Assembly: GCA_964533575.1 (NCBI GenBank)
Contig: CAZHMG010000006.1
Span: 51-64,050, forward strand
Direction of reading: 5' to 3'
DNA length: 64,000 nucleotides
Origin: an uncultured Thermoleophilia bacterium
GTDB lineage: Bacteria > Actinomycetota > Thermoleophilia > UBA2241
Position 1 is the stretch's first letter. Each line of letters begins with the position of its first letter. Position numbers and translations under genes: made by a program. The notes below the pieces were generated by a model that saw nothing but the letters and a program-made list of their open reading frames with translations, made no database searches and was not told the origin of the DNA. Below are positions 664-25,366 of this stretch, in pieces.

Positions 664-678
664 GGCTGATCCGCCGGC

Positions 679-1509
679 GTGCTGACCGTCCTGGCAGGCC
701 TGTCGTCGGCGTTCGCCTATGCGGCGAGCGACCTGTTCTCGCAGAGGGTGACCCGGCGGGCGCGTGCGCTCACGCAGGTCGTGTGGGTCCTGACGACCGG
801 CGCCCTCATCATCCTGCCGGTCGCCCTGCTCGTGGACGGCTGGCCTCAGGACGGCCAATGGCGATCGGCAGGAATGGCCGCCCTCGCCGGCGTGGCCTAC
901 GTCGCCGCCTTCTCATGCCTCCTGCGCGGCCTGCAGACCGGAGACCTCGGTCTCGTCTCGACCCTCAACTCGCTCCAGGGCGCTTACGCCGTCCTTGCGT
1001 TCGTCCTTCTGGGCCAGCCCGTGTCACCGGCGCTCGGATTGGCGCTGGCGTTGTGCGCCGCCGGAGCCGCCCTCACGTCCTTGCAGGACCGCGCCAGCAC
1101 GACGGCGGGCGCGGCTTGGGCGTTCGCCTCCGGCCTTCTCTTCGCCACCGTGATGGTCTGCTATAGCTACGCCGATGGGATCAGCTGGCTTTCACAGACG
1201 GCGATCTCCCGGTTCGTGTCGCTGATCCTCGCGTTGCCGATCGCGATGATGACTGGCGGCTTTGCGCTTCCCAAGGGCTTGCGACCTGTCGCCGTGGGCG
1301 CCGGTGCTCTGGAGCTCTGCGGCCTGCTCCTGTTGACGGCGTCGTTGTCGCTGGGACCGTTGACGGTGGCGGGTGTTACGACTACTCAGTTCGGAACCTT
1401 CGCGGTGCTTCTCGGGTTCGCGTTCCTCCGCGAGCGACCGCGGCGTCATCAATGGGTTGGTATCGCCTGTACCCTGCTCGGCGTGACCGCGCTGGCGGCG
1501 CTTGCATGA
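679..1509 (+). CDS. DMT/EamA-family transporter
   Basis: About 10 hydrophobic helices in two repeats, with a C-terminal FLRERP..QWVGI EamA-type signature. Confidence 0.8.
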   Translation: MLTVLAGLSSAFAYAASDLFSQRVTRRARALTQVVWVLTTGALIILPVALLVDGWPQDGQWRSAGMAALAGVAYVAAFSCLLRGLQTGDLGLVSTLNSLQGAYAVLAFVLLGQPVSPALGLALALCAAGAALTSLQDRASTTAGAAWAFASGLLFATVMVCYSYADGISWLSQTAISRFVSLILALPIAMMTGGFALPKGLRPVAVGAGALELCGLLLLTASLSLGPLTVAGVTTTQFGTFAVLLGFAFLRERPRRHQWVGIACTLLGVTALAALA

Positions 1510-1578
1510 AGCACGTGTGCACAACCGCGGCGCCTTGGGCAGGATGGGCATACGTGCGGCGCGACGGGACGGGAGCCC

Positions 1579-4500
1579 ATGCTGCTGATGGATGACAAGG
1601 CGAACACCCCGGGCCGGGACATCGAGGTCCTCTGCTTCGACTGGGACAGCATCAGGCGAGAGGATGGAGGAGAGGATGTCGCGGAGGCGCGCAGCCTCAT
1701 TCAGCGGCTGTGCGCCGTGGGACTCGACATCGCCCTCCTGAGCGATTCCGACGTCGCTGCGGTCGACGACGAGCTCCGTGCGCGGGCGGACGTCGAGGGC
1801 CGCCTCTTCCTCTTCCTGTCGGGGGGTTCGGAAGTCTATGTGGTGGGGCCACAGGGCCCGCGGTTGCTCGCCAGACGGCAGGCGAGCGAGCAGGAGGAGG
1901 CCCAGATGGCGTCAGCTGCGGCGGCGTTCCGTGATGAGCTGGCAGGACGAGGACTTGACGTCTCTCTGACCTACGACGGCTTCAACCGCTGGCGAATCAC
2001 GCTTCCTCCCGGCGCGAAGGACGATGACGGTGAGGAGAAGTTGGTCCACCTCGCCCGGGAGCAGTTGCATGCAGCCGGATTACGGGACCGGGGGGTGAGA
2101 GTTGACGGGTATCAGCTGTATCTGGGCCACACCGATAGACGCAGCAGCCTGCGCGAGGTGATCCGGCATCTGATCCTCGAGCGCCGGCGCGAACTGTCCG
2201 ATCTTCTCGTCATCGGTGACGGTGTCGAGGAACTCGTCCGGCACGTCGCGCCTCGCGGCAGCCGCGGACGGCCGCTCGTGCTGGCCAATGAGCCGGGCGG
2301 ATGGGGCTTGGTGCTGCCGCTTCTCCGCGACCAGCTCGCGCGGCGGACGTCGGCCGCGTACGAGCGCTTCCCCGAGCCGGCACCAGACCCCGCTTGGCGT
2401 TACGAGGTGGTAGGGTTCGATCCATTTCGCGAGCGTGAGTCGGAGACGCTGCTGACCGTGTCCAACGGCGAGTCGGGGACTCGCGGGTCACTCGAAGAGG
2501 GATCTGGGGTCTCCACTCCCGGCACCTTCGTTGCCGGCGTCTTTGGCGACGGCACGGGAGAAATCCGTTTCCGCCAGCCCGTGCCGGCCGCGGACTGGGT
2601 CGGGTTGCGGCTCCTTGTCGGCGGCCTGCCGCTGTCTCTGGCGAACGGGGAGCTGATCGAGCATCGCCGCGTCCTCGACATGCGCCATGGAGTCGTTCAT
2701 CGAATCTGGCGGCAGCGTGACGGGATGGGACGTATCGTGACGGTACGCACAGCTCGCTTCGCGTCTCTCGCCGACCGTCAGATGCTCGCCCTTCGTGCGG
2801 AGGCGACAGCGGATAACTACTCCGGTCGCCTCATCTGGCAGTCCGCGGTGGGAATCTCGCATGCTGGCGGCCCTGTCAAAGAGATGGAGATCCATGACAT
2901 GCCGGATTCACGCCTGCTGGCGCGTACCATGGGCCGTAATGGCGGCGGGCATGTGCTCGCGCTGACCACGCAGCCCGCGTTCGGTTCGCCGATCGTGCGC
3001 TACGTGGATCAGGGCCGCGACGTCATCGGCGGCCTGCTGGAGCCCGGCGATCCCGCGACCGTCGATCGGCTCGCAGCCCTGGTGTCAGCGCGCACCCGCG
3101 TGCCGTCCGCCGCCGCAGTTGATCGAGTCCTCGAGAGGGCGATGCGTCTCGGCTACGACGAACTGCTGCGCCGCCATCGCGCCGCTTGGGAAGATCGATG
3201 GCGTGACGCCGATCTGGTGGTCGAGGGCGATGACGACGATCAGCAGGCCCTTCGATTCAGCATCTTCCACATGATCAGCACGGCCCACCCCACGAATGAC
3301 AGCGTCTCGGTGGGTGCGCGAGGCCTGAGCGGCATGTCCTACTTCCTGCATGTCTTTTGGGATACCGAGATCTTCGTGCTGCCATTCTTCATCTACACCC
3401 ATCCGCAGACAGCGCGAACGCTCCTTGCCTACCGCTTCCGAAACCTCGCGGGCGCTCGGGAGAAGGCGCGCCGTTTTGGTCACCGCGGCGCGCTCTACCC
3501 TTGGGAGTCTGCCGACAAGGGGGTTGAGACGACGCCGCCATACGGGCTCGGCCCCGGTGGGGAAGTGGTGCCCATCCTCTCCGGCCTCATGGAACATCAC
3601 ATTTCGGCTGACGTGGCCTGGGCTGTCTGGGAATACTGGAAGGCAACCGCGGACGACGCCTTCATGACGGGCATGGGCGTCGAAATGCTTCTCGAGACGG
3701 CGCGTTTCTGGGCCTCTCGATCCGTCCCCGACGACGAGGGCAGATACCATATCCGCCTCGTGGTCGGGCCTGACGAGTACCATGAGGCCATCGACGACAA
3801 CGCGTACACCAACGTTCTCGCGCGCTGGAACATCAGACGTGCTCTGGAGGCGTGGGCCTGGTTGCGGGAGGCCGACTCCGGCTACGCCGACGAGCTGTGG
3901 GAGCGCTTGGGTCTGAGTATGGGCGAGTTCGGGGAATGGAGCGCCGTGGCCGAGGGCCTCGTCGACGGCTTCGATCCGCAAACGCTCCTCTACGAGCAGT
4001 TCGAGGGTTTCTACGAGATGGATGATGTACCGCTCGAGAAGTTGCGGCCGCGCCCCATGGCTGCGGACATGCTGCTCGGGCGCGAGGCGACACTGCGTTC
4101 GAAAGTGATCAAACAGGCGGATGTGGTGATGCTCTCCCACGTCCTCTCAGACGAGATCGATGATGCGGTCACGGCCGCCAATTACGACTACTACGAGCCG
4201 ATGACCGCCCACGGCAGCTCCCTGAGTCCGGGAATGCACGCAGCCGTTGCGGCACGTCTCGGGCGAGTCGAGGATGCCGTCGACGACTTCAAGATGGCGG
4301 CGGCGATCGATCTCGGCGATACCATGGGCAACGCCGCGCGCGGCCTTCACCTTGCGACGATGGGCAGTCTGTGGCAGGCCGCGGTCATGGGGTTCGCAGG
4401 CATTCAGCGGCGAGACGAAGTTCTCCTCGTCGATCCCCACCTCCCGCCATCGTGGCGCGTGGTCAGGGTGCCGTTCCTGTTCCGCGGCGCCCGCCTTTCC

Positions 4501-4659
4501 TTTGACTTCGACCGCCGGGACGATGGCCTCGATCTGGGTATAAGCGTTGAACAGTCCGGCGTACGCGTCATCCTGGGCGGCGTGGAACACACGCTGCATC
4601 CGGGACGGCGTACCTTTCGCCGTGGCGAGGGGGGTGTGTGGCAGGAGGTTGACCCATGA
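1579..4659 (+). CDS. Glycoside hydrolase family 65 (trehalose/maltose/kojibiose phosphorylase-like) with an N-terminal HAD-like domain
   Basis: GH65 motifs ESETLLTVSNG..GTRG, GARGLSG..Y..HVFWDTE, GPDEYH, IKQADV and HGSSLS. The N-terminus has FDWD...VIGD HAD-like motifs. GGGAG RBS present. Confidence 0.9.
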   Translation: MLLMDDKANTPGRDIEVLCFDWDSIRREDGGEDVAEARSLIQRLCAVGLDIALLSDSDVAAVDDELRARADVEGRLFLFLSGGSEVYVVGPQGPRLLARRQASEQEEAQMASAAAAFRDELAGRGLDVSLTYDGFNRWRITLPPGAKDDDGEEKLVHLAREQLHAAGLRDRGVRVDGYQLYLGHTDRRSSLREVIRHLILERRRELSDLLVIGDGVEELVRHVAPRGSRGRPLVLANEPGGWGLVLPLLRDQLARRTSAAYERFPEPAPDPAWRYEVVGFDPFRERESETLLTVSNGESGTRGSLEEGSGVSTPGTFVAGVFGDGTGEIRFRQPVPAADWVGLRLLVGGLPLSLANGELIEHRRVLDMRHGVVHRIWRQRDGMGRIVTVRTARFASLADRQMLALRAEATADNYSGRLIWQSAVGISHAGGPVKEMEIHDMPDSRLLARTMGRNGGGHVLALTTQPAFGSPIVRYVDQGRDVIGGLLEPGDPATVDRLAALVSARTRVPSAAAVDRVLERAMRLGYDELLRRHRAAWEDRWRDADLVVEGDDDDQQALRFSIFHMISTAHPTNDSVSVGARGLSGMSYFLHVFWDTEIFVLPFFIYTHPQTARTLLAYRFRNLAGAREKARRFGHRGALYPWESADKGVETTPPYGLGPGGEVVPILSGLMEHHISADVAWAVWEYWKATADDAFMTGMGVEMLLETARFWASRSVPDDEGRYHIRLVVGPDEYHEAIDDNAYTNVLARWNIRRALEAWAWLREADSGYADELWERLGLSMGEFGEWSAVAEGLVDGFDPQTLLYEQFEGFYEMDDVPLEKLRPRPMAADMLLGREATLRSKVIKQADVVMLSHVLSDEIDDAVTAANYDYYEPMTAHGSSLSPGMHAAVAARLGRVEDAVDDFKMAAAIDLGDTMGNAARGLHLATMGSLWQAAVMGFAGIQRRDEVLLVDPHLPPSWRVVRVPFLFRGARLSFDFDRRDDGLDLGISVEQSGVRVILGGVEHTLHPGRRTFRRGEGGVWQEVDP

Positions 4660-5471
4660 CGCTGCTGATTGCCGTTTCAAACGTCGACAGGGATGCCGAG
4701 CTGATCGAATCCGGTCGTGCGCTGGCTGCCGCCGCCGGCTGGGATGTTCTTGCGGTTCATGTTCGCGAAGCCGAATGGGGCTTGGGTGGGGGGGACATCG
4801 ACGGCGTGGAGCTCCTGAACCTGGAGGGGGAGCCGGCCGACGCGCTCGTCACACTGATCTCCAATGCCACGATTGACTGCGTCGGCGTAGGCCTGTCGCT
4901 TGCCGACGGGTCCCCATTCGGGTCGATCGCGCGCTCGCTCCTCGAGCACTTCTCGCATCCGATCCTGCTGGTGAGGCCCGGCATGAGGCCGGTGACGGAA
5001 CTGCAGCGTCTTCTCGTCCCGCTCGAGGGAACGCCCTCCTCGTCTGCCGCGATGCTCTTCGTCGAAAGCGCCTTGTGCGTGCCTGGGCGCGAAATCACCA
5101 TGCTCCACGTAGCCACCGGGAGCGCCCCAGCTGAGGCCGGGAGTCTGCCGGCTCCGCGGTTCATCGACCAGGAGCAGTACGAGTGGAGTGACTGGCAGGA
5201 CGAGTTCTCCATGCGCTTCTCTCAGCGTGCGGAAGGGTGCCGCCATCGCGTTGATGTGGTCGTCGGCGATCCGCCCGGCGCGATCGCGGAGGAGGCCCGG
5301 GCCAGGGACGTCGACCTCATCGTGCTGACGTGGAAGGGCAGCTTCGCGGCCGGGCACGGCCCGGTCGTCAGGCGCCTGCTCGACGTTGCGCCGTGCCCCT
5401 TGGTGCTGGTCCCGTCCACGTGGACGTCAGGCGAGCACGACGTGGCTGCGTCGCTTGGAGCGCACCTGTGA
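4656..5471 (+). CDS. Universal stress protein (tandem USP domains)
   Basis: LLVPLEGT, LIVLT, GPVVRRLL..APCPLVLV. ATGA overlap with the GH65 stop. Confidence 0.75.
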   Translation: MTLLIAVSNVDRDAELIESGRALAAAAGWDVLAVHVREAEWGLGGGDIDGVELLNLEGEPADALVTLISNATIDCVGVGLSLADGSPFGSIARSLLEHFSHPILLVRPGMRPVTELQRLLVPLEGTPSSSAAMLFVESALCVPGREITMLHVATGSAPAEAGSLPAPRFIDQEQYEWSDWQDEFSMRFSQRAEGCRHRVDVVVGDPPGAIAEEARARDVDLIVLTWKGSFAAGHGPVVRRLLDVAPCPLVLVPSTWTSGEHDVAASLGAHL

Positions 5472-5474
5472 CGG

Positions 5475-6245
5475 TCAGGCTTGCCCTCTCTCCGGCAGTC
5501 GCCGGGAGAACACCATAACGAGGACGGCGCCGACAGCCATGCCTGCGAGCGAGACCCACTGCGGCTGCGTGAGCCCCGCATACCACTCAGGGTTGCGGCG
5601 GACGAACTCAACCAGCAGGCGCTCCGCTCCGGAGAGGATCAGGAACCAGCCAAACGTCCACCACCCGGAATGGTTTCTGCCGGCGAGCCACCAGAGCAAC
5701 CATATGATGGGAATCATCATCAGGACCTCGTAGATGGGGGTTGGGTGTACGGTGACTCCCGGGGGAGTCGGCACCGTCCCCTGCGGATACCCCATTGCCC
5801 AAGGGAGCGAGGAGGGGCGGCCGTAGTCCCCGTCACCGGCGAGCTGACAACCGATGCGGCCGATGGCGTAGCCGGCGGCGGTTGCCGGCGCCATGGCGTT
5901 GGCGATCACGCCGAGCGGGACGCGACGGACGAGCGTCCACGCCACGACGGCGAGGAAACCGCCGATGAGTCCCCCATACCAAGTGAAGCCGATGCCGCCG
6001 AACAATGCGCCCGTCAGATCGTCCTGAACTGAGCTCCAGTGTTCGGCGAGGTAGTAGATGCGCGCACCGACGAAGCCACCGGCGCCGGCCGCGATGATGA
6101 GCTCGTAGGCGAAATCGGGGTCGACGCCGCGGCGCCTGATGAGCGGGCGCACGACGAAGATGCCAGGAAGGATCAGCGACAGGGCCGCCATGAGGCCAAA
6201 GCTATGGATGCGAAGGCCGCCGATTTCGAAAAGTATTGGTCTCAT
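5475..6245 (-). CDS. lgt: Prolipoprotein diacylglyceryl transferase
   Basis: MRPILF, GARIYY, GFTWYGG, AIGRIGC, HPTPIYE, ERLLVEFVR. Confidence 0.92.
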   Translation of the reverse strand: MRPILFEIGGLRIHSFGLMAALSLILPGIFVVRPLIRRRGVDPDFAYELIIAAGAGGFVGARIYYLAEHWSSVQDDLTGALFGGIGFTWYGGLIGGFLAVVAWTLVRRVPLGVIANAMAPATAAGYAIGRIGCQLAGDGDYGRPSSLPWAMGYPQGTVPTPPGVTVHPTPIYEVLMMIPIIWLLWWLAGRNHSGWWTFGWFLILSGAERLLVEFVRRNPEWYAGLTQPQWVSLAGMAVGAVLVMVFSRRLPERGQA

Positions 6246-12008: not shown

Positions 12009-13156
12009 CAACAGGGCCGGGACAGATTCCCAAGGTCATGCGGGCCGTGCAGTTGACCAAGCCCGCTCCCGTTTCCGAGGCCCCCCTGCGCCTCGTCGAA
12101 CTCCCGGTGCCTGCTCCAGGTCCGGCTGACGTACTGCTGCGCGTCCGCGCCTGCGGCGTCTGCCGCACCGACCTGCACATTGTTGAGGGCGACCTCCCGC
12201 CGCATCGCTCGCCCGTCGTGCCCGGGCATCAGGTCGTCGGCGAGGTCGTGGCATTCGGCGACGGCGCGCGGAATGTCTCGCCGGGAGGCGAGACCGGATC
12301 CGCGCCGCTAAGCCTGAACGAGCGTGTGGGTGTTCCTTGGCTGCACAGGACGGACGGCTCCTGCCGGTTCTGTCGCCGGGGCGACGAGAATCTGTGCGAG
12401 CATCCCCTCTTCACCGGGTGGGATGTGGACGGTGGCTTCGCCGAGTACATGGTGGCGCCCGCCGCCTTCGTCTATCGCCTGCCCGCGAACATGGGCGACC
12501 TCGCCGCAGCGCCTCTGCTCTGCGCGGGCATCATTGGCTACCGCTGTCTGCGACTGGTCGGCATAGTAGGCCGCGAAAGCGGTTTGCCGGGCAGTGGCCG
12601 GACGGTCAGTGGGCGAGCCGGGCAGGACCTGCCGGCTCCGTTGCCGTCGCCGGGAGGCGTTCGCCGTGTCGGCATCTATGGCTTTGGATCTGCCGCATCC
12701 TTGTGCACCCAGGTCGCGCTGTGGCGAGGCTGGGATGTCTACGCGTTCACGCGCGGCGCCCCTCATCGCGACCTCGCTCTCGAGCTCGGGGCCGTCTGGG
12801 CTGGAGAGACCGACGATGACCCTGGCGTACGGCTGGACGCAGCGATCGTCTTCGCGCCGGCAGGCGAGCTGGCGATCGCTGCCCTGCGCCGCTTGGACAA
12901 GGGCGGTATCGTCGCGCTCGGCGGGATCTACAGTACGCCGATCCCGCCGATCGAGTATCCGTGGATCTACCAGGAACGCGTCGTGCGCAGCGTGGCCAAT
13001 TCGACGCGTCAGGATGGGCGGGAGCTCTTGCGCGACGCCGCCCTCATCCCAGTGCAGAGCCGCGTGCAGGAGTATCCGTTCGAGGAGGCCAACAGAGCGC
13101 TCCTCGACCTGAAGCAGGATCGAGTGCGGGGGTCGGCGGTCCTGCGAGTGGGCTAG
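12005..13156 (+). CDS. Zinc-dependent alcohol dehydrogenase family protein
   Basis: CGVCRTDLH, PGHQVVG, structural-Zn C..C..C.......C, APLLCAG, GIYGFG. GTGA overlap start at 12005; alternative ATG at 12038. Confidence 0.88.
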   Translation: MTTGPGQIPKVMRAVQLTKPAPVSEAPLRLVELPVPAPGPADVLLRVRACGVCRTDLHIVEGDLPPHRSPVVPGHQVVGEVVAFGDGARNVSPGGETGSAPLSLNERVGVPWLHRTDGSCRFCRRGDENLCEHPLFTGWDVDGGFAEYMVAPAAFVYRLPANMGDLAAAPLLCAGIIGYRCLRLVGIVGRESGLPGSGRTVSGRAGQDLPAPLPSPGGVRRVGIYGFGSAASLCTQVALWRGWDVYAFTRGAPHRDLALELGAVWAGETDDDPGVRLDAAIVFAPAGELAIAALRRLDKGGIVALGGIYSTPIPPIEYPWIYQERVVRSVANSTRQDGRELLRDAALIPVQSRVQEYPFEEANRALLDLKQDRVRGSAVLRVG

Positions 13157-15854: not shown

Positions 15855-16529
15855 TCAGGAGGCGTCCGGAGCGATCGCCCCGCCTTCTCCCTCGCGCACA
15901 GCCCTCAACCTTTCCTTGAAGCCGGTCTCCTCCATGATCGTCTGGACCTCCTTCACTGCGTCCTCTGGGGGAAAGAGGGGCCCGAGTCCCAGTTCAGCCC
16001 GGATCTCGAGCAGGTGCTCCATATAGGAGGTCCAGTGTTCGCCCCATGCGTCGGCGATGGCCGGGAAGAGCAGGTGCGGATCCCCGCCCATGCCTTTCTC
16101 GTAGAATGTGGCACACCACTCTGCGAACGGCTTCACGTGCCTGTGCGCTTGGCCGCTCTCGACCTGAAGGCCGCGCAGGACCTGATTGATGACCGCCACG
16201 CTGTTGTGCCTGGGGCAACGACTCTGGCACGTGTAGCAGTAGTAGCAGAACCAGAGGGAATCCTCCGTCAGGAGGCTTTCGTCCCCGTCGAGGGCTCGTC
16301 GTGCGATCTCGCGGGGCGAGTAGTCGGTGAACCGCGCGGCGGGACAGCCGGACGTGCAAATGCCGCACTGGATGCAGCTGCGAAACCCTTCTCTGTGATC
16401 GTGCATCCGCGGGTCATCGAGTATTCGCTGAACGAGATCCGGATTGCGTCTGGGCGCCTGCGCGAAGCTGTTATCGGCGATGACAGCGTAGGGATTCACA
16501 GGCGGCGCAGACTGAGCCTCATCGGTCAT
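15855..16529 (-). CDS. hdrC: Heterodisulfide reductase subunit C-like (2x[4Fe-4S])
   Basis: CIQCGICTSGCP and WFCYYCYTCQSRCPR. GGAGG RBS, with ATG 16529 overlapping the upstream stop. Confidence 0.82.
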   Translation of the reverse strand: MTDEAQSAPPVNPYAVIADNSFAQAPRRNPDLVQRILDDPRMHDHREGFRSCIQCGICTSGCPAARFTDYSPREIARRALDGDESLLTEDSLWFCYYCYTCQSRCPRHNSVAVINQVLRGLQVESGQAHRHVKPFAEWCATFYEKGMGGDPHLLFPAIADAWGEHWTSYMEHLLEIRAELGLGPLFPPEDAVKEVQTIMEETGFKERLRAVREGEGGAIAPDAS

Positions 16530-17734
16530 TGCTGGTCCTCCGGAACGTTCGGGGCTGCCCGGAAGAACTCGGGCCAGAAGTGTACAGTCACCGGACAATT
16601 CAGCTCTCTGGCGGCGGAGCGGAGATTGTCGCAACAGAGAGAGCAGGTGCTCACGACGGGCGAATCATGCGTTGCGGCGAAGTCGAGGAGCATCGCGCTC
16701 GCTTTGGTCGCGCCGCGGTACATCCCGCCCAGCGCCCCGCAGCACCCGTTGTGGAGACTCGGATAGGTTCGACGGACCTTGACGCCGGCGAGGCGTGCAG
16801 CAGCGCCGAGTGCGGACAGGGACTGGTCCCGCCGCGCGAGACAGCCAACGTAGGGGACGAAGGAGGGCGACGCAGCCTGCAGGGCGATGCCGCTTCTCTG
16901 AGCCTGCGCGACCAAGGTATCCCACAGCGGGACCGTGGAGACGCCCGCCTTCTCGAGCGTGGCATCACAGGCTGGGCATGCCGTCTGTATGGTCTCCTCG
17001 CTATGGTACCTACTGCCGACGGCGCCCCGGCTGGGATGGCCGCAGCAACCGGCGTCCGCCAAATCCAGGCGGACGCCGAATCCCGCGGCCACATCGTGCA
17101 CCAGGCCGTGCAGCTCGCCGTCCTGCGGCAGAGAGCAGCCTGCGTAGAAGGGCAGGGAGACGACATCGCCGGCTGCCTGGTGTCTCGCAGGGGAGCCCAG
17201 TCGCGCCGCGTCATCCATCCCCGCTGTGGCTCCGGGCAGCTTGCGGGCGAGCGGCAGCTTCTGCCGTGCGAGTCGCATGCCCATGGCGATCATGCCCGGT
17301 TTGTCCTTTGGCACATGGCCATGGGCCATCATTCCGACACCCAGCCGCATCGAATCAATGCGCGGCTGTCGATGCAGTTGTGCAGCGGCAAGGTCCGCCG
17401 CCGATCGCTCAGGGCACCGGATGGTGGTTCCATGCTCGCGCTCGAGCTGCCGCAGGCGGCGAAGGATACCCGCCACGTCTATCTCCATGCGACAGACGTC
17501 GCTGCAGGCCCCGCATCCAGTGCAGCGCCAGAGGTCGTCGCTCTTCAGGACGGCCTCGATGTCGCCGGCCAAGATAAGCCGCACGAGCCTGCGAGGCCCG
17601 CGATACAGCTCGCGTCCGCTCGGGCAGGAGGACGTGCAAGTGCCGCACTGGTAGCAGGGATAACACTCCCGGGCCAGGCTCTTGAACTCGGCCTGCACTG
17701 CCGCCGGGTATGGCTGTCTACCGCTGGTCGCCAC
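16526..17734 (-). CDS. HdrC-like dicluster domain fused to two compact CCG domains (HdrC/B or HdrD-like)
   Basis: CYQCGTCTSSCP, WRCTGCGACSDVC, then FYAGC..GCCG..ACPAC and YVGC..GCCG..TCSLC. Confidence 0.78.
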   Translation of the reverse strand: MATSGRQPYPAAVQAEFKSLARECYPCYQCGTCTSSCPSGRELYRGPRRLVRLILAGDIEAVLKSDDLWRCTGCGACSDVCRMEIDVAGILRRLRQLEREHGTTIRCPERSAADLAAAQLHRQPRIDSMRLGVGMMAHGHVPKDKPGMIAMGMRLARQKLPLARKLPGATAGMDDAARLGSPARHQAAGDVVSLPFYAGCSLPQDGELHGLVHDVAAGFGVRLDLADAGCCGHPSRGAVGSRYHSEETIQTACPACDATLEKAGVSTVPLWDTLVAQAQRSGIALQAASPSFVPYVGCLARRDQSLSALGAAARLAGVKVRRTYPSLHNGCCGALGGMYRGATKASAMLLDFAATHDSPVVSTCSLCCDNLRSAARELNCPVTVHFWPEFFRAAPNVPEDQQ

Positions 17735-20165
17735 AGCCGTTCTCTCCCGTTCGGCCCAGGCCGCACGCCAGGTGGCCTGCAGGGGCGCCGATAAGATCCA
17801 TCTCGCGGTCGATCATCTCTCCGGAGGGGGCTCCTCCCGCTGCTCGGGCGTGGAACATCCGTATCTGCCGCCCGACGTTCTGGCGGTCCACAGCGCAGAG
17901 GTGCCAGAGTTCGAGCGGCAGCGGCGTTCCGGACGCCTGGAGGAGCTCGTCGGCCACGGCCAGCTGCTCTGCCGCGCTGACGTCGCCGCTGCGGTACTGG
18001 CAGCGGCCCGAAGCGCAGCCGGCAAGGAAGACGCCGGCGGCGCCCAAACGAGCTGCTTCAACGATGTGCAGGGCGCTCACGCGTCCGAGGCACGGCAGCT
18101 CGACGAGGCGCACGGACTCAGGGTAGCGATCGCGGCGCTGGCCGCTCAGCCCGATCGCCGCGCCTGCACACTCTCTGCAGTAGAAGCCCACGACCGGCTT
18201 CTCGACGCCCTCCATGACGAGCGCGAGCCGCCCGAAGAGAGAATCGTCACTGAGATTGTGGGTGATGGCCATCTCGGGACAGTTCGCGACACAGATGCCG
18301 CATGCCCTGCATGTCTCCGGGTCGATGACGGCCAGCTTCGCGTCGTCTTTGGCGGTGGCCGGACGTGGCACACCTGCCCGCCGATCGACCAGAGTGATCG
18401 CTCCGAATGGGCAGCGTGTGACGCAGGTGTCGCAGCCGATACAGCGCTCCGCCTCCACGGATGACGCGGCGGTGCCTCTTCGTCCGGCGGAGGTCAGGAA
18501 GTTGTGTATCTCTGTAGCGACCGCCGAGGCCTCTGTGTTGACCTCGATGAGGGCTTTCGGCCCTGCCGCGGACCCGCAGACGAAGATGCCCTCGCTGCTG
18601 GTCTCGGTCGCCCGGTTCTTGCGGTCAAGGATTTCGATGAACCCATCCGCGTCAAGCGCGACGCCGAGTGTCTGCGCGACTTCTGGGGCATCAGACGTCG
18701 GGACCATCCCAGTGCTCAGCACGACCAGATCGGGCCGAAGTACGCGTTTCCGCGCGGCTGTCACGTCCTCCACTTCGATGACAGGCCGTCCGCTTGCGTC
18801 GAACTGGACCTCCGGCGGGGTGCCGCGGAGGAACTCCACTCCCGCTTCGCGCGCCGCCAGGAACCAGTTCTCGTAGCCGACGCCCGCCGTCCTCATCTCC
18901 AGGTAACAGATGATGATCCTCATGTCGGGGAAGAGCGCGCGCAGCCGGATGGCGTGCTTGAGAGCGATCATGCAGCACAGGCGAGAACAATGGGGGAGGT
19001 GCCGGCGATCTCGCGATCCAGCGCACTGCACCATGACGAGTTCCTCGACTGGCGTGTGCCCGAGCGAAGCCTGTGCCGCCCAGTCATCCATGCGCTCGGC
19101 CAGCTCGACCTGCGTGATGACACCTTCATGGCCATAGCCCAGATACGAGAAGTATTCCTCAGGGGCGGGGCGACAGCCAGTTGCCGCAAGGATGGCTCCC
19201 GCGTTGACAGTCGCGCGTTCCGGAGACTGTGAGAAGTGGATGGCGTCGACCGGACAGGCGTCCGCGCAGGCGCCGCAGAAGGTGCATGTGTCCAGGTCGA
19301 TCGTGCGCAGGACGCGGCCGTCGTAGAACTCGCTGAAGATCGTCTTCGTGCCCGGTTCCGAGGAGTCCGCCGGGCAGACCGTCTCGCAGATGCCGCAGTT
19401 CACACACGCGTCCGTGACGATGTTGGGGAGGCGCTTGATGTTCACTTGGTAGTCTCCCGGATGACCGGTCACCGACTCGACAGTGGCACGGCGATGAATC
19501 CTCAGGTTCGGATGGTCAATAGCCACGTTGCGGTGAAAGCACTTCCGGGTTCCTGCCTGGGCATCGGTGGTTGGAAGACACTGGCCGCAGTCGTTCGTGG
19601 GGAAGACCGTGCCGATGCGGGCGGCTCGGCCGCCGAGGAAGGGCCGCCGCTCGACCAGCTCCACGAGATGACCCATCTGGGCGAGTTCGGCGGCGGCCTG
19701 CGTTCCGGCGACGCCGCCGCCGATGACGACGACCGTGTTCTCGCGCTTGGCGTGGCTCATCATGTTTGATTGAGGGGCGGGATACGCTATGGCGGAGGCG
19801 ATGATGCGTTGCGCCTTTTCCGTGACCGTCGGCACATCATCGCCGTGCACCCAGCTGCAGCCCTCGCGAATATCGGCTATCTCGAGGGCGAGGCCGCGCA
19901 CGAACAGCTTGTGGAGCCGCCGCTCGGCAAAATCCTCCGAGCAGCCCGCGAAGACGAGGCGGCTCGCCTCTCCGCCTTGTTCCATCAGCTCCAGCAGCTG
20001 CGCCTGCCCCTCGCGACTGCACCAGTGGCGCCCGCGGACGACGTCTGCCGTCAGGCTTGCCTCGGCCGTGACCCGGTCAAAGTCGATGTTGGCCATCGTC
20101 CCCGCGCATTCGCACAGGAGCAGGAGCGGCCGCTCGCGACCTGTCTCCGCCGGCGGGGTGATCAC
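17718..20165 (-). CDS. hdrA: Heterodisulfide reductase subunit A family protein
   Basis: LCECAG, VIGGGVAG, TVFPTNDCGQC, QCAGSRD..HCSRLCCMIALKH, and four CxxCxxCxxxCP motifs. The C-terminal MvhD-like segment has FYCREC..LVELPCLGRV. Confidence 0.9.
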   Translation of the reverse strand: MITPPAETGRERPLLLLCECAGTMANIDFDRVTAEASLTADVVRGRHWCSREGQAQLLELMEQGGEASRLVFAGCSEDFAERRLHKLFVRGLALEIADIREGCSWVHGDDVPTVTEKAQRIIASAIAYPAPQSNMMSHAKRENTVVVIGGGVAGTQAAAELAQMGHLVELVERRPFLGGRAARIGTVFPTNDCGQCLPTTDAQAGTRKCFHRNVAIDHPNLRIHRRATVESVTGHPGDYQVNIKRLPNIVTDACVNCGICETVCPADSSEPGTKTIFSEFYDGRVLRTIDLDTCTFCGACADACPVDAIHFSQSPERATVNAGAILAATGCRPAPEEYFSYLGYGHEGVITQVELAERMDDWAAQASLGHTPVEELVMVQCAGSRDRRHLPHCSRLCCMIALKHAIRLRALFPDMRIIICYLEMRTAGVGYENWFLAAREAGVEFLRGTPPEVQFDASGRPVIEVEDVTAARKRVLRPDLVVLSTGMVPTSDAPEVAQTLGVALDADGFIEILDRKNRATETSSEGIFVCGSAAGPKALIEVNTEASAVATEIHNFLTSAGRRGTAASSVEAERCIGCDTCVTRCPFGAITLVDRRAGVPRPATAKDDAKLAVIDPETCRACGICVANCPEMAITHNLSDDSLFGRLALVMEGVEKPVVGFYCRECAGAAIGLSGQRRDRYPESVRLVELPCLGRVSALHIVEAARLGAAGVFLAGCASGRCQYRSGDVSAAEQLAVADELLQASGTPLPLELWHLCAVDRQNVGRQIRMFHARAAGGAPSGEMIDREMDLIGAPAGHLACGLGRTGENGCGDQR

Positions 20166-20593
20166 AGGCCTGCGGCCTCAGGTGTCGCACGTGCGTCTTC
20201 TGTGCGCGGTGGACGTCCTTCGATCGCTTGTACCGGGCAGCCACGAACGCATGTGCCACAACCGAGGCACAGGTCGGGAGAGTAGACAATGGTTCGATAC
20301 ACCGTGACGCGCGGCGGAACCTGAACCGGCCCGTCCGGCGCCTGGCGCATGAGGCGCCGAAGCGCGTCGCCGAGAGCGCCACGGCGACTTTCCGGCGGCG
20401 CCTCGAGCAACTGCATCACGTCGAAGGTGTCCCCTCGTCTTGATGCGCCCGATGGACAGTTCACGGCACACCGGCCGCAGCCCACGCAGAGTTTCTCGTG
20501 CCGGACGATCTCACAGCCGATCCCAGAGGTACCCGATGCCAGGTGACCCGGCAGGCGGGACACGATGGCGCGTCCGCGGTCGTTCAGCGGCAC
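20162..20593 (-). CDS. 4Fe-4S dicluster ferredoxin-like protein
   Basis: CVGCGRCAVNCP and CLGCGTCVRGCP. Start placed at GTG 20593 after GGAGTGAGG. Confidence 0.75.
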   Translation of the reverse strand: MPLNDRGRAIVSRLPGHLASGTSGIGCEIVRHEKLCVGCGRCAVNCPSGASRRGDTFDVMQLLEAPPESRRGALGDALRRLMRQAPDGPVQVPPRVTVYRTIVYSPDLCLGCGTCVRGCPVQAIEGRPPRTEDARATPEAAGL

Positions 20594-21048
20594 GACTCGG
20601 CCCTCACTCCGCCGGCCGCGACTGCCACTTCGGGACGCATCGCGGCTGAGTCCGCCCGCTTCAGGGGCGGCAAAGCCTGGATGGTCCGGTCCATCTCCTT
20701 CACCGCCGCGACAAACCGTGGCGGCTCCCCGGCGCTCATGGTGAACATTCGGCATCGTTCCGGCTCGACCCCCACGCTGGTCAGCAGCCGCTGCACGAAC
20801 TTGACCCGGTCAATGGCGTTGAAGTTGCCTTCGCGGTAGTGGCACTGCCCCTCGAGACAGCCCGCCACCATGACGCCGTCCGCGTTCTCGGCCAGCGCCG
20901 CCAGAATATGCATTGGACTTACGCGCCCCGTGCAGGGCATGAGCACGAGGCGCACACTCGGGGGGAGAGAAGTCCGCGAGTTGGCGCTGGCATCGGCCGC
21001 CGCGTAGGCGCACTCGCGGCAGCAGAAGGCGACGATGGAGCGGTCCAT
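20584..21048 (-). CDS. mvhD: MvhD/FlpD-family [2Fe-2S] subunit
   Basis: IVAFCCRECAYAAAD, MPCTGRV, ADGVMVAGC..GQCHY..GN, MSAGE. TGATG overlap at 21048. Confidence 0.9.
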   Translation of the reverse strand: MDRSIVAFCCRECAYAAADASANSRTSLPPSVRLVLMPCTGRVSPMHILAALAENADGVMVAGCLEGQCHYREGNFNAIDRVKFVQRLLTSVGVEPERCRMFTMSAGEPPRFVAAVKEMDRTIQALPPLKRADSAAMRPEVAVAAGGVRAESCR

Positions 21049-24000
21049 CAGACGGTCGCTTCCGCCAGCACTTCGGCGTCGCTGAAGCCGCCCAGTTGCA
21101 TCGCGCCAGTCGGGCATTCAGCCGAACAGATGCCGCAGCCGCGACAGATGTTCGGATTGACGACGGCATGGCTCGCCGCCCCCGCCGTCAGCGTGATGGC
21201 CATCTGCGGACACGAGGTTTCACACACGCCGCAGCCGATGCACACGGTGGGATCGCTTGCCGCCACCTGCGCTGCGGTGAGGGTGAATCCCGATGAGAGC
21301 ATGGAGATGGCGCGTGCCGCCGCCGCTTTCGCTTGCGCGATCGATTCGGGAATCGTCTTCGGGCCCTGTGCCGTTCCGGCCACGAACATCCCGCTACGTT
21401 GCGTGTCGACCGGACGCAGCTTCGGGTGGTACTCGCGGATGAACCCCGCGGAGGCGGTCTGGAGTCCGGCGACGTGAGCGATATCGCGCGTGCCCTGCGA
21501 CGCCTCAAGGCCGGCCGAAAGTACGACCAGGTCGAACAGCTCCTCCTGCTTGCGACCGGTCATGGTGTCTTCGAGCCGCACGCGCAGGCTGCCGTCCGGC
21601 TCCTCCAGGATCTCGCCGACCCGGCCGCGCACGTAGCGCACCCCGCGCCCCTGCACGAGGCGGTAGTACTCCTCGTGGGCCTTGCCCGGGGCACGAAGAT
21701 CCGTGTAGGCGATGGTGACCTCGGCCTGCGGGTCGTGCTGGCGTATGAGTGATGCGTGGAGGGTGGCAAACAGACAGCAGACCGCAGAGCAGTGCTCATT
21801 GCCCGTGGCGGTGCAGTCGCGCGAGCCGACGCACTGGAGCATGAAGATCTTCTTGGGACGGGCTCCGTCTGAGGGGCGCACGAGCTCGCCTGCGGTCGGC
21901 CCCGAGGCCGCGAGCAGCCGTGCGACCTGGCTCTGTGTGAGCACATTGCGATAGCGGTCGTAGCCCAGCGGCTCCTTGCGGCTCGCATCGAACTCCTGGT
22001 GGCCCGTCGCCAGGATGACCGCGCCGACGGTGAGCTCCTCGCTCGTCTCCTGCTGCTCCCAATCGATTGCGCCGGACGGGCATGCTCTGACGCAGGAGTC
22101 GCACTCGCTGCAGATGGCGCAGTTGAGACATCGCTCGGCCTCCGCCACGGCTTGCTCGGCAGTGTAGCCCAGGCTCACCTCGCCCCAGTGATCACGACGG
22201 GCCAGGCCGTCGGCGAGGGCCATCGGTACACGCTGGCCGATCTCGATGGCCGCGAGCTCGGCGCCAGTCGGCCGTGCGGCTTCGCGCTCCACCGGCCAGA
22301 CCGGCAGGAGCCGCCCCCCGCGCAGATGATTATGAATGGCGGCGGCCCCCCGGCGTCCGGCGGCCACCGCTTCGATCGCCGTGTAGTAGCCGAGGGCGGC
22401 CGCATCGCCTCCGGCGAAGACGCCTTCGCGGCTCGTCATCATCGTCTCTCTGTCAATGAGGATCTGGCCGTTCTCCACGCGCAGCCCCTCACAGCCGTGG
22501 ACAAAGTCGTCCACGAGGGCCTGACCCACCGCGAAGATCACCATGTCGGCGGCGAGCTCGAAGTCGGAGCCCTCAACCGGGACGGGCTGGCGGCGGCCTG
22601 AGGCGTCAGGTCGTCCCAGCTCGCATCTCTGCAGCGCCAAGCCCGCAACCCGGTCGTCGCGCTTCGTGATCTCGAGGGGCTGCACGAGAAACTCCACTTT
22701 CAGCCCCTCCTCGCGGGCCTCGTGGACCTCGCCTGCGTTGGCCGGCATCTCAACTCTGCCGCGGCGATAGGTCAACGTGACGTTGGGCTCAAAGCCCGCC
22801 TGACGCTGCAGGCGGATGGCGCTGCGAGCCGCATCGAGCGCGACGTCGCCTCCGCCCACAACGACGACACACTCCCCGACCTCCGGAGTGGCTCCGAGGT
22901 TGAGCGCTCGCAGGAACTCCACCGCTCGCGTCACGCCGCGCAGGTCGTCGCCCGGCAGGCTGACGGAGGCGCTCTGCTGGAGACCCGTCGCAAGGTACGC
23001 GGCGCCGAAGCCGTCGTTGAGCAATCCGTCAATGGAGAAGTCCACGCCGGCGCGCTGGTTGAGCCTGAGTTCGACGCCGAGAGCGAGGATCTGGTCGATC
23101 TCGCGCTGGATGACTTGGTGCGGAAGACGATAATCGGGGATGCCGGTGCGCAGCATGCCTCCGGCTACCGGCTGCGCTTCGAAGACGGTGGCCCGATAGC
23201 CGAGGTGCGCGAGATCGCGGGCGCAGGTGAGGCCGGCGGGGCCGGCTCCGATGATGGCCACGCGTTCCGTGTGCACTGTCTGCGCCGGCTGGACCGGCAC
23301 CCCTGGCCCAACCGTGTCGGCGACGAACCGCTTGAGCGCGGCGATCGCGATCGGCGCGTCCACTGAGCCGCGAGCACAGGCTGTTTCACAGAGGTGGGTG
23401 CAGATGCGCCCGCAGACACTGCTGAACGGGTTGGGCTCGCTCGCGACCCGGTAGGCGTCCTCGAATCGTCCCGCCGCGACCAGGGCGACATACCCCTGGG
23501 CCGAGGTGTGGACGGCGCACGCGCTCTTGCAGGGACTCCAGCCCTTCTTTTCGATGGCGAACGTAGCGGGTACCGCGCCGGCGAACGGGCGCGAAACCGC
23601 CGTGCGAGTCGCAACGCCGAACTCGAAATCGCTCGGACACTCGACCGGACACACTGCCGCGCACTCGCCGCAGCCGACGCAGGCCTCGGTGACATAGCGC
23701 GGCTTGTGCCGCAGTCTGACGCGGAACTCGCCGGGGGGCCCCGAGATCTCGTCAACCTCGGTCAGCGTGTGCACGTGGATGCGCCCTTCAAGCGCTGTGC
23801 TGGTGAGGCGCGGCGCAAGTGAGCACATGGCGCAGTCTTCGGTTGGGAAGGTCTTGCTGAGGCGCGCCATGTATCCGCCGAGAGACTGCTCGCGCTCGAT
23901 GAGATGCACGTCGATGCCGCTCCCAGCCAGCTCCTCCGCAGCCGTCATACCGGCGATGCCGCCACCCACAACCATTGCCGTCCGATGGAGGAAGGTCCGG

Positions 24001-24404
24001 GTACGGGGCAGATCGTGCTGATGGCGGGCGCGGGCGACGGCGCCGGCGACGATCGTTCGTGCCTTCTCCTGGGCCGCCTCCGGTTCGTCCCGATGGACAA
24101 ATGAGCATCCCTCGCGGATGTTGGCGAACGACACTGCATTCTCACCGAGCTTCAGATCGCGCGCGATGCGTTCGAAAGTGGGTCCCTGAAAGCGCGGCGA
24201 GCAACTCGCGATGACCAGATGATCCAAGCCACGGTCCTCGACCGCGCCGGCGATGAGATCGTGACCCTCGGTTCCGCACATGAACTGGCTGGCCGCTACC
24301 GTGCTCACGCCCTCGAACTGGCGAATGTGCTCGGCGAGGGCGGGCAGATCGATGACGCCGCTGATGTTGCCCCCACACTGGCAGAGGAAGACCCCCGCCC
24401 TCAT
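21048..24404 (-). CDS. HdrL-type protein: HdrA with an inserted GltD/NfnB-like NAD(P)H oxidoreductase module
   Basis: HdrA N-terminus (GVFLCQCGGNI, VGGGIAG, SKTFPTEDCAMC). Insert: PCKSAC..NPFSSVCGRICTHLCETAC, IIGAGPAG, VGGGDVALD, YRR. Then HdrA C-terminus (QCVGSRD, CSAVCC, two terminal ferredoxin motifs). Confidence 0.88.
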   Translation of the reverse strand: MRAGVFLCQCGGNISGVIDLPALAEHIRQFEGVSTVAASQFMCGTEGHDLIAGAVEDRGLDHLVIASCSPRFQGPTFERIARDLKLGENAVSFANIREGCSFVHRDEPEAAQEKARTIVAGAVARARHQHDLPRTRTFLHRTAMVVGGGIAGMTAAEELAGSGIDVHLIEREQSLGGYMARLSKTFPTEDCAMCSLAPRLTSTALEGRIHVHTLTEVDEISGPPGEFRVRLRHKPRYVTEACVGCGECAAVCPVECPSDFEFGVATRTAVSRPFAGAVPATFAIEKKGWSPCKSACAVHTSAQGYVALVAAGRFEDAYRVASEPNPFSSVCGRICTHLCETACARGSVDAPIAIAALKRFVADTVGPGVPVQPAQTVHTERVAIIGAGPAGLTCARDLAHLGYRATVFEAQPVAGGMLRTGIPDYRLPHQVIQREIDQILALGVELRLNQRAGVDFSIDGLLNDGFGAAYLATGLQQSASVSLPGDDLRGVTRAVEFLRALNLGATPEVGECVVVVGGGDVALDAARSAIRLQRQAGFEPNVTLTYRRGRVEMPANAGEVHEAREEGLKVEFLVQPLEITKRDDRVAGLALQRCELGRPDASGRRQPVPVEGSDFELAADMVIFAVGQALVDDFVHGCEGLRVENGQILIDRETMMTSREGVFAGGDAAALGYYTAIEAVAAGRRGAAAIHNHLRGGRLLPVWPVEREAARPTGAELAAIEIGQRVPMALADGLARRDHWGEVSLGYTAEQAVAEAERCLNCAICSECDSCVRACPSGAIDWEQQETSEELTVGAVILATGHQEFDASRKEPLGYDRYRNVLTQSQVARLLAASGPTAGELVRPSDGARPKKIFMLQCVGSRDCTATGNEHCSAVCCLFATLHASLIRQHDPQAEVTIAYTDLRAPGKAHEEYYRLVQGRGVRYVRGRVGEILEEPDGSLRVRLEDTMTGRKQEELFDLVVLSAGLEASQGTRDIAHVAGLQTASAGFIREYHPKLRPVDTQRSGMFVAGTAQGPKTIPESIAQAKAAAARAISMLSSGFTLTAAQVAASDPTVCIGCGVCETSCPQMAITLTAGAASHAVVNPNICRGCGICSAECPTGAMQLGGFSDAEVLAEATV

Positions 24405-25366
24405 CGGGCGCCTGCCGTCCGCCGGGCTCCGATGCGCTCGAGGAAGGGCTCGACGTCCTGGGAATGCGATTGGACGCCGACGTCCTTCTCCGGGTCTGCC
24501 CCAAGAGCCAGGGCGAGAAGCTGCTGAACGTGAAGGTGAACGAACGGGTACTCCTCGCCACTCGAGGCGGAGATCATGTCATGGTAGCGGTCGAACTGAA
24601 CATGACAGTTCGGACACATGTGAACGAGCACGTCGACATTCTCCTGTGCGAGCCGGCGCAGCTTCTGCTGGGTCACCGCCATCGAGATGGACGGATTGAC
24701 GAAGCGGTTGCGGAAGCCGGCGCCACAGTGAAGGGTCTTTTCGTTGTAGTTGCCGGTGGGGGTGACCCCGGCAGGCATGAGCAGCTCCTCGGGCACCATG
24801 AAGTTCTCGTTGCTCCCCAGTGCGTCCTCCGGAAAGACCTTGCAGTAGTGGCAGGCGGGGTGCGTCGCGACCCTGACTCCGTCGAGCCGGCGACGGACGA
24901 GTTGCGGAATCGAGTCGTGGGCTCCCCAGAGGATGTCCAAGGTGTGCTTGTGCGCGACCTTGTCGGCGATCTCGTCGTCGTACTGCCGCCCGACCTTCTC
25001 CAGAACCTCGTTGGCGTCGTTGCGGTACTGGTCCACGTCGAGGATGGCTTCTGCCTTCTTGTTGATCGCATAACAGGTGGAGCAGAGGTAGCACATGGTG
25101 GGGTGCTCGTTCTCCACTGCGACGCATGCGTTGCGGGCGGCAAGTGCCACGGTCGTCTCGATGGGCATGAGATCAGAGTAGTACCCGAGACCGGTGCAGC
25201 ACGTCTGCTCCGGATGAATCGTGAATTCGATGTCAAAGCGCTCAAAGAGCCATTTGGTGGCAGCTTCGACTCCAGGATACTCAGCGGAAACGAGGCAACT
25301 GCGGAAGAGGAGGACACCGCCGTCCGTGCGAGGGACGTCGGGAGTCTTGCGGTAACGTTTGGTCAT
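24401..25366 (-). CDS. hdrB: Heterodisulfide reductase subunit B (two CCG domains)
   Basis: FRSC..QTCCTG..LCSTC and HPACH..LHCGAG..MCPNCHVQFD, QLLALALG. Confidence 0.88.
   Translation of the reverse strand: MTKRYRKTPDVPRTDGGVLLFRSCLVSAEYPGVEAATKWLFERFDIEFTIHPEQTCCTGLGYYSDLMPIETTVALAARNACVAVENEHPTMCYLCSTCYAINKKAEAILDVDQYRNDANEVLEKVGRQYDDEIADKVAHKHTLDILWGAHDSIPQLVRRRLDGVRVATHPACHYCKVFPEDALGSNENFMVPEELLMPAGVTPTGNYNEKTLHCGAGFRNRFVNPSISMAVTQQKLRRLAQENVDVLVHMCPNCHVQFDRYHDMISASSGEEYPFVHLHVQQLLALALGADPEKDVGVQSHSQDVEPFLERIGARRTAGAR

Follow-up and report, generated by a model that had tools for sequence, protein, structure and literature searches.

In a 64,000-nucleotide stretch of an uncultured Thermoleophilia bacterium (GCA_964533575.1, contig CAZHMG010000006.1; hereafter the window), the minus strand carries a seven-gene heterodisulfide reductase (Hdr) operon with two related HdrA proteins. 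One of them, HdrL, is an HdrA with an inserted nicotinamide nucleotide (NAD(P)H) module, and it has lost the lysine and the glutamate that mark the bifurcating flavin. The other, a second HdrA fused to MvhD (HdrA2), keeps the lysine. Our proposal is that its products assemble into a heteromeric, self-contained Hdr-type complex, in which HdrL would be the input subunit and HdrA2 the bifurcating one, and we give this reading a probability of roughly 45%. HdrL and HdrA2 are probably a natural pair, with electron splitting at just one of their two related flavins. HdrA2 is the candidate site of bifurcation or confurcation because, of the two, only HdrA2 keeps the lysine at the flavin N5.

HMMER alignments of HdrL and HdrA2 to the solved HdrA chains 9sfi_A, 8rvv_A and 5odc_A place these residues. 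Residues 9–634 of 5ODC chain A from Methanothermococcus thermolithotrophicus (Mt) were rebuilt from the alignment to verify the numbering; in the rebuilt chain, K409 is the lysine of CCMYAMKNS and E356 is the second glutamate of TALELERM. The corresponding HdrL motifs, NVLTQSQVARLL (residues 820–831, window 21912–21947) and CSAVCCLFATLHA (residues 872–884, window 21753–21791), align without gaps and at top posterior probability. Leu882 stands at the K409 position, Ala828 at E356 and Gln826 at E354, and R357 is kept. HdrL is consequently without the Lys409–Glu356 pair of the 5ODC-type bifurcating flavin site, as the initial annotation had claimed, and the alignment reveals no other basic residue in its two N5-contacting segments.

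In HdrA2, the motifs read GVITQVELAERM (residues 348–359) and CSRLCCMIALKHA (residues 393–405). Lys403 (18957–18959) corresponds to K409, which agrees with the earlier statement that the second HdrA keeps the lysine. The glutamate had been described as shifted or ambiguous, and the alignments bear this out. HdrA2 has E354, A356 and E357 at 19095–19106; in pairwise HMMER and BLAST alignments a one-residue gap lets E357-R-M match E356-R-M, and the ungapped alignment puts Ala356 at E356 and a glutamate at 357, which fits the TQVELAEML of the orthologues.

The Lys/Glu rule, which the initial annotation had invoked, is found in the literature. K409 lies about 3.2 Å from the flavin N5 in methanogen HdrA (PMC13514486, PMC6405883). 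It stabilises the reduced flavin, and E356 positions it (PMC12054007). PMC12054007, with reference to Wagner 2017, Ernst 2021 and Appel 2021, gives K409 and E356 as residues proposed to separate bifurcating from non-bifurcating HdrA.

The substitution is shared by the relatives of HdrL. Our orthologue survey covered 79 species genomes of Thermoleophilia, Gaiellaceae and Acidimicrobiales/Acidimicrobiaceae, with 72 readable HdrL and 65 readable HdrA2 proteins. The K409 column of HdrL holds leucine in 66, valine in 4, alanine in 2 and lysine in none, and the E356 column holds alanine in 62 and serine in 10. About 120 closest clusters all show CC[L]F[A]TL[H/N] and TQ[S/G]Q[L/V][A/S]RLL; some matches of this clade are also labelled Dormibacteria. 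By maximum likelihood on the HdrA core, all Lys-less proteins group in a single clade, whose very long stem measures 1.58 changes per site and has 100/100 support. The loss of the lysine across the 72 orthologues is one inherited event, not 72 independent ones.

A HMMER scan of 1.84 billion cluster representatives yielded the best 150 matches, 60 of which contain the insert together with the flanking C-terminal part of the thioredoxin reductase (TrxR)-like domain. Among these 60 HdrL-type representatives, 55 carry both the glutamate and the lysine, and 2 more carry the lysine without the glutamate. Only three are without the lysine, namely the representative of the Lys-less clade itself, P0144 from Thorarchaeota, and P0176. 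At K409, P0144 shows arginine by MAFFT and methionine by BLAST and is taken as non-Lys or uncertain; both P0144 and P0176 lie on short contigs in other gene contexts. K409 and E356 are present in all nine archaeal type III (GltD-insert) HdrA (PMC12054007), a conservation from which HdrL departs at both positions. Retention of the pair in these nine proteins and the 55 representatives answers a concern of the initial annotation, that the substitution might be the default of HdrL proteins; it is not. Within the host genome, HdrL is without the lysine, the three other HdrA-like genes readable at this column have it, and another two copies are partial and end before the column.

Apart from the flavin-site residues, HdrL has the features of an HdrA. 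It matches five solved HdrA chains with E values of 1e-136 to 4e-171 (HMMER), and the match falls into two stretches, residues 2–287 and 765–1113 (9sfi_A 4e-171, 5odc_A 1.4e-159). The TrxR-like flavin adenine dinucleotide (FAD) domain, the N-terminal cluster domain, and the inserted and C-terminal ferredoxin domains are all present. The Pfam domains Fer4_20 and Pyr_redox_2 at 290–683 split the HdrA match, which is the architecture of HdrL and type III HdrA. The FAD motif GxGxxG begins at G147, C194 is the equivalent of C197, and the [4Fe-4S] ligands CVGSRD..C..CC locate within residues 756–1118.

Comparing canonical HdrA with the Lys-less clade, we notice that C46, C71, G150, G152, G155, E173, C197 and C246–C256 are invariant in both, as are the cluster ligands C386, C399, C403 and C404. 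Only 7 near-invariant columns of canonical HdrA show a different fixed residue in the Lys-less clade, K409L being the most radical. Because so few columns differ, and every Fe-S cysteine and the FAD motifs (GxGxxG, E173 and GG) are retained, the clade has undergone a targeted change of the flavin environment rather than decay. The missing residues might in principle reflect a sequencing error or a pseudogenised paralogue, and we found no support for either. The frame is intact over 1118 codons, the CTC codon of Leu882 differs from the lysine codon AAG at all three bases, and the same state occurs in 72 species and more than 120 protein clusters with all cofactor ligands conserved. The chance of an artefact or a decaying gene is negligible.

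The TrxR-type flavin of HdrL could also bifurcate in spite of the substitution, if the Lys/Glu pair were dispensable or replaced in three dimensions, possibly by a partner subunit. The K409/E356 rule is a proposal, and about 15% of archaeal HdrA are without K409, and 15–22% without one of the two residues (PMC12054007). The rest of the flavin and cluster surroundings is conserved in HdrL, and the Lys-less clade has specific basic residues in the HdrA core at Mt 108, 448 and 481 only, positions known by sequence position alone. However, none of these falls in the two N5-contacting segments, the residues that replace the pair (L/V/A and A/S) are fixed and either small or apolar, and a Lys-bearing paralogue is always co-encoded. 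The well-studied bifurcating flavins of NfnL, Etf and HdrA all have arginine or lysine at N5 (PMC6405883; PMC12018979). We consider bifurcation at the HdrL flavin improbable.

HdrA2 displays another pattern. Its K409 column is lysine in 65/65 readable orthologues, and its E354 column is glutamate or aspartate in 65/65. The lysine of HdrA2 is thus strictly constrained, and its glutamate partner is not.

The insert of HdrL (residues 290–767) finds its best PDB matches in 9bov_A (3e-115), 9n5u_A (NfnA, 9e-106) and 8oh5_C (StnC, 8e-94); NfnL/NfnB (4ylf_B 1e-85, 5jca_L 5e-79) and GltD rank lower. In NfnABC, the FAD of NfnA does not bifurcate and feeds a cluster chain, and the proximal cluster is held by three cysteines and Lys165, in contrast to the glutamate of bifurcating NfnL (PMC12018979). 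After reproducing R234, R239 and K165 of that paper, with a constant offset of 8 for 9N5U, we found that K358 of HdrL (LKRF, 23331–23333) corresponds to the cluster-ligand Lys165 of Thermococcus sibiricus NfnA. The insert thus departs from the cluster ligation of bifurcating NfnL/NfnB. Also, a segment ..EAxRCLxC stands at the C-terminal end of the module in HdrL and in the three best matches, and at the N-terminal end in NfnB. With the lysine ligand, the YRR motif described below and the closest similarity, the insert shares the features of the NfnL-like domain of Bfu-type NfnA/StnC and belongs to the non-bifurcating NADPH-entry type.

This assignment argues against bifurcation on the insert flavin, which would be Nfn-like and would leave the HdrA-type flavins as relays. 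The homology of the insert to NfnL/NfnB would favor such a mechanism, as would R426 (in GIPDYRLP), at the position of the arginine hydrogen-bonded to N5 in NfnL. However, the same arginine is conserved in NfnA and StnC (R234 in T. sibiricus, R239 in Sporomusa ovata) and lies far from N5 there, as noted for NfnABC (PMC12018979). The insert is also closer to the non-bifurcating domains, and according to PMC10482914, StnC lost the ability to bifurcate. Lys358 rather than glutamate takes the proximal-cluster ligand position, and by Pfam no NfnS-like partner ([2Fe-2S] plus a second FAD) is encoded among the seven operon genes or their immediate neighbors. Moreover, at the single insert-less locus inspected, the operon is similar even though the clade member has no insert. 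Bifurcation at the insert FAD is highly improbable.

The nucleotide-binding fold of the insert carries GGGDVA (GxGxxA) at residues 517–522, followed by TLTYRRGR, in which YRR spans residues 546–548 (window 22761–22769). Both elements align with NADPH-dependent NfnL, NfnA, StnC and GltD, and HdrL has the NADPH-fold signature of GxGxxA and a basic YRR after beta-2, with no acidic residue there. Classically, NADH-type folds are marked by an acidic residue where beta-2 ends. In the clade, 42 species carry YRR, and more than 30 carry Cys-Ile/Ala/Val/Pro-Glu or -Asp together with a 5-residue deletion just upstream of the motif. Earlier, YRR had been taken to suggest a preference for NADPH; the homology fits this idea and the sisters carry Cys-x-Glu, so that an NADPH preference of HdrL is well supported as a prediction. 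The split between YRR and Cys-x-Glu is also seen across diverse HdrL-type modules. On the HdrA core tree, the two types are interspersed (loci L013–L091; HdrL 540–550, approximately 22755–22785), which suggests module exchange or repeated switching.

The analysis shows the domain architecture, the residue states and their conservation, the operon and the type of the insert; from these we infer cofactor occupancy, the electron path, subunit pairing, nucleotide preference and the identity of the bifurcating flavin, if any. In the proposed mechanism, HdrL is the electron-input subunit. The inserted NfnA/StnC-type module would accept a hydride from NADPH at its FAD and act as a non-bifurcating two-to-one-electron converter. 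Single electrons would pass through the two [4Fe-4S] clusters of the insert into the HdrA-type cluster chain of HdrL. The TrxR-type FAD of HdrL, with Leu/Ala in place of the N5 Lys/Glu, would serve as an ordinary relay or redox buffer without bifurcation, and the MvhD modules would bridge HdrL to HdrA2. The Lys-bearing flavin of HdrA2 would then split electrons between a CCG-type disulfide reductase arm at high potential and the operon ferredoxin at low potential, or run in reverse.

The operon may also work entirely without bifurcation. A plain NADPH:disulfide (heterodisulfide-type) reductase would then be formed by HdrL together with HdrB and the HdrC-like protein, and a second, ferredoxin-linked reductase arm with a shared substrate by HdrA2-MvhD, the HdrD-like fusion and the ferredoxin. 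Reduction of a disulfide by NADPH (−320 mV) is exergonic and needs no bifurcating lysine. The operon contains two complete CCG/dicluster sets, HdrB with the HdrC-like protein and the HdrD-like fusion, as well as two MvhD modules. In addition, HdrL is without K409 and E356, and HdrA2 is without E356 in register. However, the retention of K409 in every readable HdrA2 implies that its flavin is constrained. A single complex is suggested by the conserved order of the seven genes and by their tight translational coupling, seen in the junction sequences, and MvhD modules normally bridge HdrA protomers. We hold two uncoupled arms to be unlikely.

The Lys-less clade also includes proteins without the nucleotide module. 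Seven protein clusters of 641–642 aa (P0130, P0276–P0281) carry CCLFATLH and TQSQ.ARLL, keep Leu/Ala and are nested at three places of the tree; one of them is labelled Thermoguttaceae (Planctomycetota). At the single insert-less locus examined (L012, 8001–9929), the Lys-less HdrA is accompanied by a CCG protein, an MvhD-ferredoxin and a second HdrA. Since insert-less members sit in a similar operon, at least at this locus, the Lys-less subunit is not defined by NAD(P)H entry; it looks as if the Lys-less partner of HdrA2 can be fitted with an exchangeable nucleotide module. The initial annotation read HdrL as a non-bifurcating NAD(P)H entry and wire and HdrA2 as the bifurcating unit. In its division of roles this is still the best-supported, though tentative, reading, and NAD(P)H entry as the defining role does not survive the insert-less members. 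In the same locus, the second HdrA frame (~13000–13136) runs into a long (RE)n repeat at the contig end, and the gene is split (231 + 554 aa); the repeat is probably an assembly artefact.

The pairing of HdrA modules gives further context. The nearest Lys-bearing HdrL that we found, P0161 of Pseudomonadales (A356/K409), lies in an hdrC-hdrB-hdrL-mvhD operon without a second HdrA. In fused double-HdrA representatives, the lysine is found in only one of the two domains in 28/77 and is missing from both in 0/77; one lysine per HdrA pair is thus a pattern that recurs. The P0161 operon and this asymmetry fit a division of labor between HdrA modules. We also considered a strict one-to-one tie between the loss of the lysine and a neighboring second HdrA and rejected it, since P0136 keeps the lysine beside an HdrA-like gene and the contexts of P0144 and P0176 differ.

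Several points weigh against the assignment of input to HdrL and bifurcation to HdrA2. The E356 column of the 65 HdrA2 orthologues is alanine, serine or threonine, and the residue after it is acidic in 51/65 (glutamate 45, aspartate 6) and leucine, serine, threonine, alanine or arginine in 14. As E356 is not in register, HdrA2 would not count as a canonical bifurcating HdrA under a strict K + E rule. The rule itself is a structural proposal, and we found no biochemical or mutational proof that bifurcation requires K409. The argument from the sister operon depends on P0161 as a single outgroup, and the Lys-bearing P0136 also adjoins another HdrA-like gene, so a second HdrA alone does not predict the loss of the lysine. 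The insert-less members indicate that the Lys-less subunit has a role wider than NAD(P)H entry. Finally, the operon also has a full HdrB and HdrC-like pair, which could let HdrL reduce the disulfide directly with NADPH without bifurcation.

We further compared the locus with known systems. In the MvhAGD-HdrABC complex of M. thermolithotrophicus (5ODC; Wagner et al. 2017), HdrA has the same domain order and cofactor ligands, and MvhD adjoins. The E value to this HdrA is 1.4e-159 for HdrL and 2e-85 for HdrA2. HdrL differs by Leu/Ala at K409/E356 and by a 467-residue NAD(P)H module in the inserted ferredoxin domain, and the operon differs from the complex in having no hydrogenase and in two different HdrA paralogues that replace the homodimer.

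HdrL of Desulfobacterium autotrophicum (Strittmatter et al. 2009, PMC2702500) and the type III HdrA, classes A9/A10, of ANME-1 and Bathyarchaeota (PMC12054007) are HdrA/GltD-type fusions followed by mvhD, for which a link between NAD(P)H and Hdr was proposed. Our HdrL shares the fusion architecture and the downstream mvhD, the D. autotrophicum protein being compared by description only. The nine archaeal type III proteins keep K409/E356 and a GxGxxG that the authors read as NADH-type (PMC12054007), whereas HdrL has neither residue and carries GxGxxA and YRR. With Bfu-type NfnA/StnC (9N5U, 8OH5, 9BOV), the insert shares the lysine ligand, YRR and the C-terminal RCLxC, with E values of 3e-115 to 8e-94. 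In these proteins, NADPH is oxidised at an FAD that does not bifurcate and passes its electrons to a chain of clusters (PMC12018979, PMC10482914). In contrast, the module is here embedded in HdrA and not fused to a NuoG/Fdh-like domain, and the downstream acceptor is an Hdr-type system instead of a HydBC-like flavobicluster.

The fused double-HdrA proteins ('type II HdrA') resemble the locus in their paired modules and in the same K409 asymmetry. Here, however, each of the two modules is a polypeptide of its own, and the NAD(P)H module is carried by the one without the lysine. The FlxABCD-HdrABC system of Desulfovibrio reportedly links NADH to the reduction of ferredoxin and a disulfide by HdrABC, with no hydrogenase. 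The overall logic is the same, but the NAD(P)H dehydrogenase of Flx consists of separate subunits, and that of the present operon is inserted into an HdrA paralogue without the lysine.

Earlier work already knew fusions of the HdrL type, the criterion of K409 and E356, and HdrA variants that lack the lysine. In the literature searched, we found no description of a Thermoleophilia heterodisulfide reductase operon of this kind, an earlier mention in a review being possible. Likewise, we did not find in that literature a monophyletic Lys-less HdrL/HdrA subfamily combined with a fixed Lys-bearing HdrA-MvhD partner, in a seven-gene operon widespread among uncultured Actinomycetota, and with a variable module (NADPH-type, NADH-type or absent). 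It is possible, though doubtful, that soil and peat Thermoleophilia, Gaiellaceae and Acidimicrobiales possess an undescribed class of hydrogenase-independent Hdr complex. Such a complex would have two diverged HdrA paralogues and bifurcate only at the Lys-bearing one; the Lys-less paralogue would be an obligate input adaptor, in which an NADPH-type, NADH-type or absent module has been repeatedly exchanged.

If this is true, nature would have provided an experiment on what the N5 lysine does. Anaerobic energy conservation depends centrally on the electron bifurcation that HdrA carries out with its flavin, and the role assigned to the N5 lysine and glutamate is based on structures and sequence surveys. 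A conserved natural pair of HdrA paralogues, one with the lysine and one without, could test whether K409 marks the bifurcating flavin. The operon also bears on the route by which NAD(P)H feeds Hdr systems that have no Flx, hydrogenase or formate dehydrogenase partner. It is widespread in uncultured Thermoleophilia and Acidimicrobiia of soils and peat, and it may matter for the balance of NAD(P)H, ferredoxin and thiol/disulfide in these abundant lineages under low oxygen.

The coordinates of the operon features are collected in Table 1. The gene order, all on the minus strand, is HdrB, HdrL, MvhD, ferredoxin, HdrA2-MvhD, HdrD-like and HdrC-like, and it is kept wherever orthologue contigs are long enough.

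Table 1. Features of the hdr operon and of the HdrL protein in the window
Feature	Position	Strand	Basis
hdrB-like gene, 321 aa, two CCG domains	24401–25366	−	Pfam CCG PF02754, E 1e-17
hdrL, HdrA with NfnL/GltD-like NAD(P)H module in the inserted ferredoxin domain, 1118 aa	21048–24404	−	PDB and Pfam matches
HdrL residues 1–288: N-terminal [4Fe-4S] domain, FAD GxGxxG, first half of inserted ferredoxin domain	23541–24404	−	HdrA structure alignment
HdrL insert, residues 289–755: two [4Fe-4S] clusters (Fer4_20), FAD, NAD(P)H fold	22140–23540	−	Pfam and PDB matches
HdrL residues 756–1118: second half of inserted ferredoxin domain, TrxR-like FAD C-terminal part, C-terminal ferredoxin domain	21051–22139	−	Alignment
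Ala828 (GCA) at E356 position	21921–21923	−	HdrA structure alignment
Gln826 at E354 position	21927–21929	−	HdrA structure alignment
Leu882 (CTC) at K409 position	21759–21761	−	HdrA structure alignment
mvhD, [2Fe-2S] protein	20584–21048	−	Pfam FlpD PF02662, E 1.6e-43; genome-search match to the HdrA2 MvhD domain
2x[4Fe-4S] ferredoxin, ~143 aa	20162–20593	−	Pfam Fer4 families; relatives 142–147 aa
Second HdrA (HdrA2) fused to MvhD, 815 aa	17718–20165	−	5odc_A 2e-85, MvhD chains; Pfam FlpD at 658–771
HdrC/HdrB fusion (HdrD-like), 402 aa	16526–17734	−	Pfam Fer4_8/Fer4_17; conserved position
HdrC-like dicluster protein, last operon gene, start uncertain	15855–16634	−	Pfam Fer4_8/Fer4_17; orthologues ~230 aa in the same place

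The hdrL gene is one intact open reading frame, and the closest relatives are Thermoleophilia metagenome-assembled genomes (MAGs). The stop of the hdrB-like gene overlaps the start of hdrL (ATGA), and almost all loci with enough sequence on that side have an hdrB-like gene upstream of hdrL. In the second CCG domain of the HdrB-like protein (P0004), HCGAG replaces CCG; because of this replacement, the second non-cubane cluster may be without one ligand. Directly downstream of hdrL, between it and the ferredoxin gene, mvhD begins with an ATG that overlaps the hdrL stop (TGATG), and it is kept across orthologous loci. The initial annotation had quoted the motifs of HdrL and HdrA2 correctly and had omitted this mvhD gene. 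A longer ferredoxin frame of 197 aa (20162–20755) overlaps mvhD, and the ferredoxin probably starts at the GTG at 20593. A CCG domain is recorded for orthologues of the HdrC/HdrB fusion. No hydrogenase or formate dehydrogenase gene is present in the seven-gene operon. The flanking genes are unrelated to it (BrkB-like, NadA, HEAT-repeat, CoA-binding), and they give no hint of the disulfide substrate.

The host genome contains other hdr loci. On contig C25, a 1049-aa open frame was considered as a second HdrL and rejected; the gene proper encodes about 560 aa of an HdrA without insert and belongs to an Mvh hydrogenase cluster. In this cluster (~230–6030), the HdrA has canonical E354/E356/K409 and is accompanied by an HdrC/B-like gene, mvhD, and the genes for the small and large subunits of a [NiFe] hydrogenase. 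A separate cluster of hdrB-like, hdrA and mvhD lies on contig C47 (~1340–4975).

Two observations come from related loci. In a Gaiellaceae MAG (L010, 2700–5234), SufB contains an intein with a LAGLIDADG endonuclease domain (Pfam). At another locus (L095, 11401–12952), an archaeal-looking HdrC-HdrB-HdrA/MvhD cluster (P0257, A356/K409) adjoins TusA and DsrE genes, and this adjacency points to a sulfur-relay substrate for that relative.

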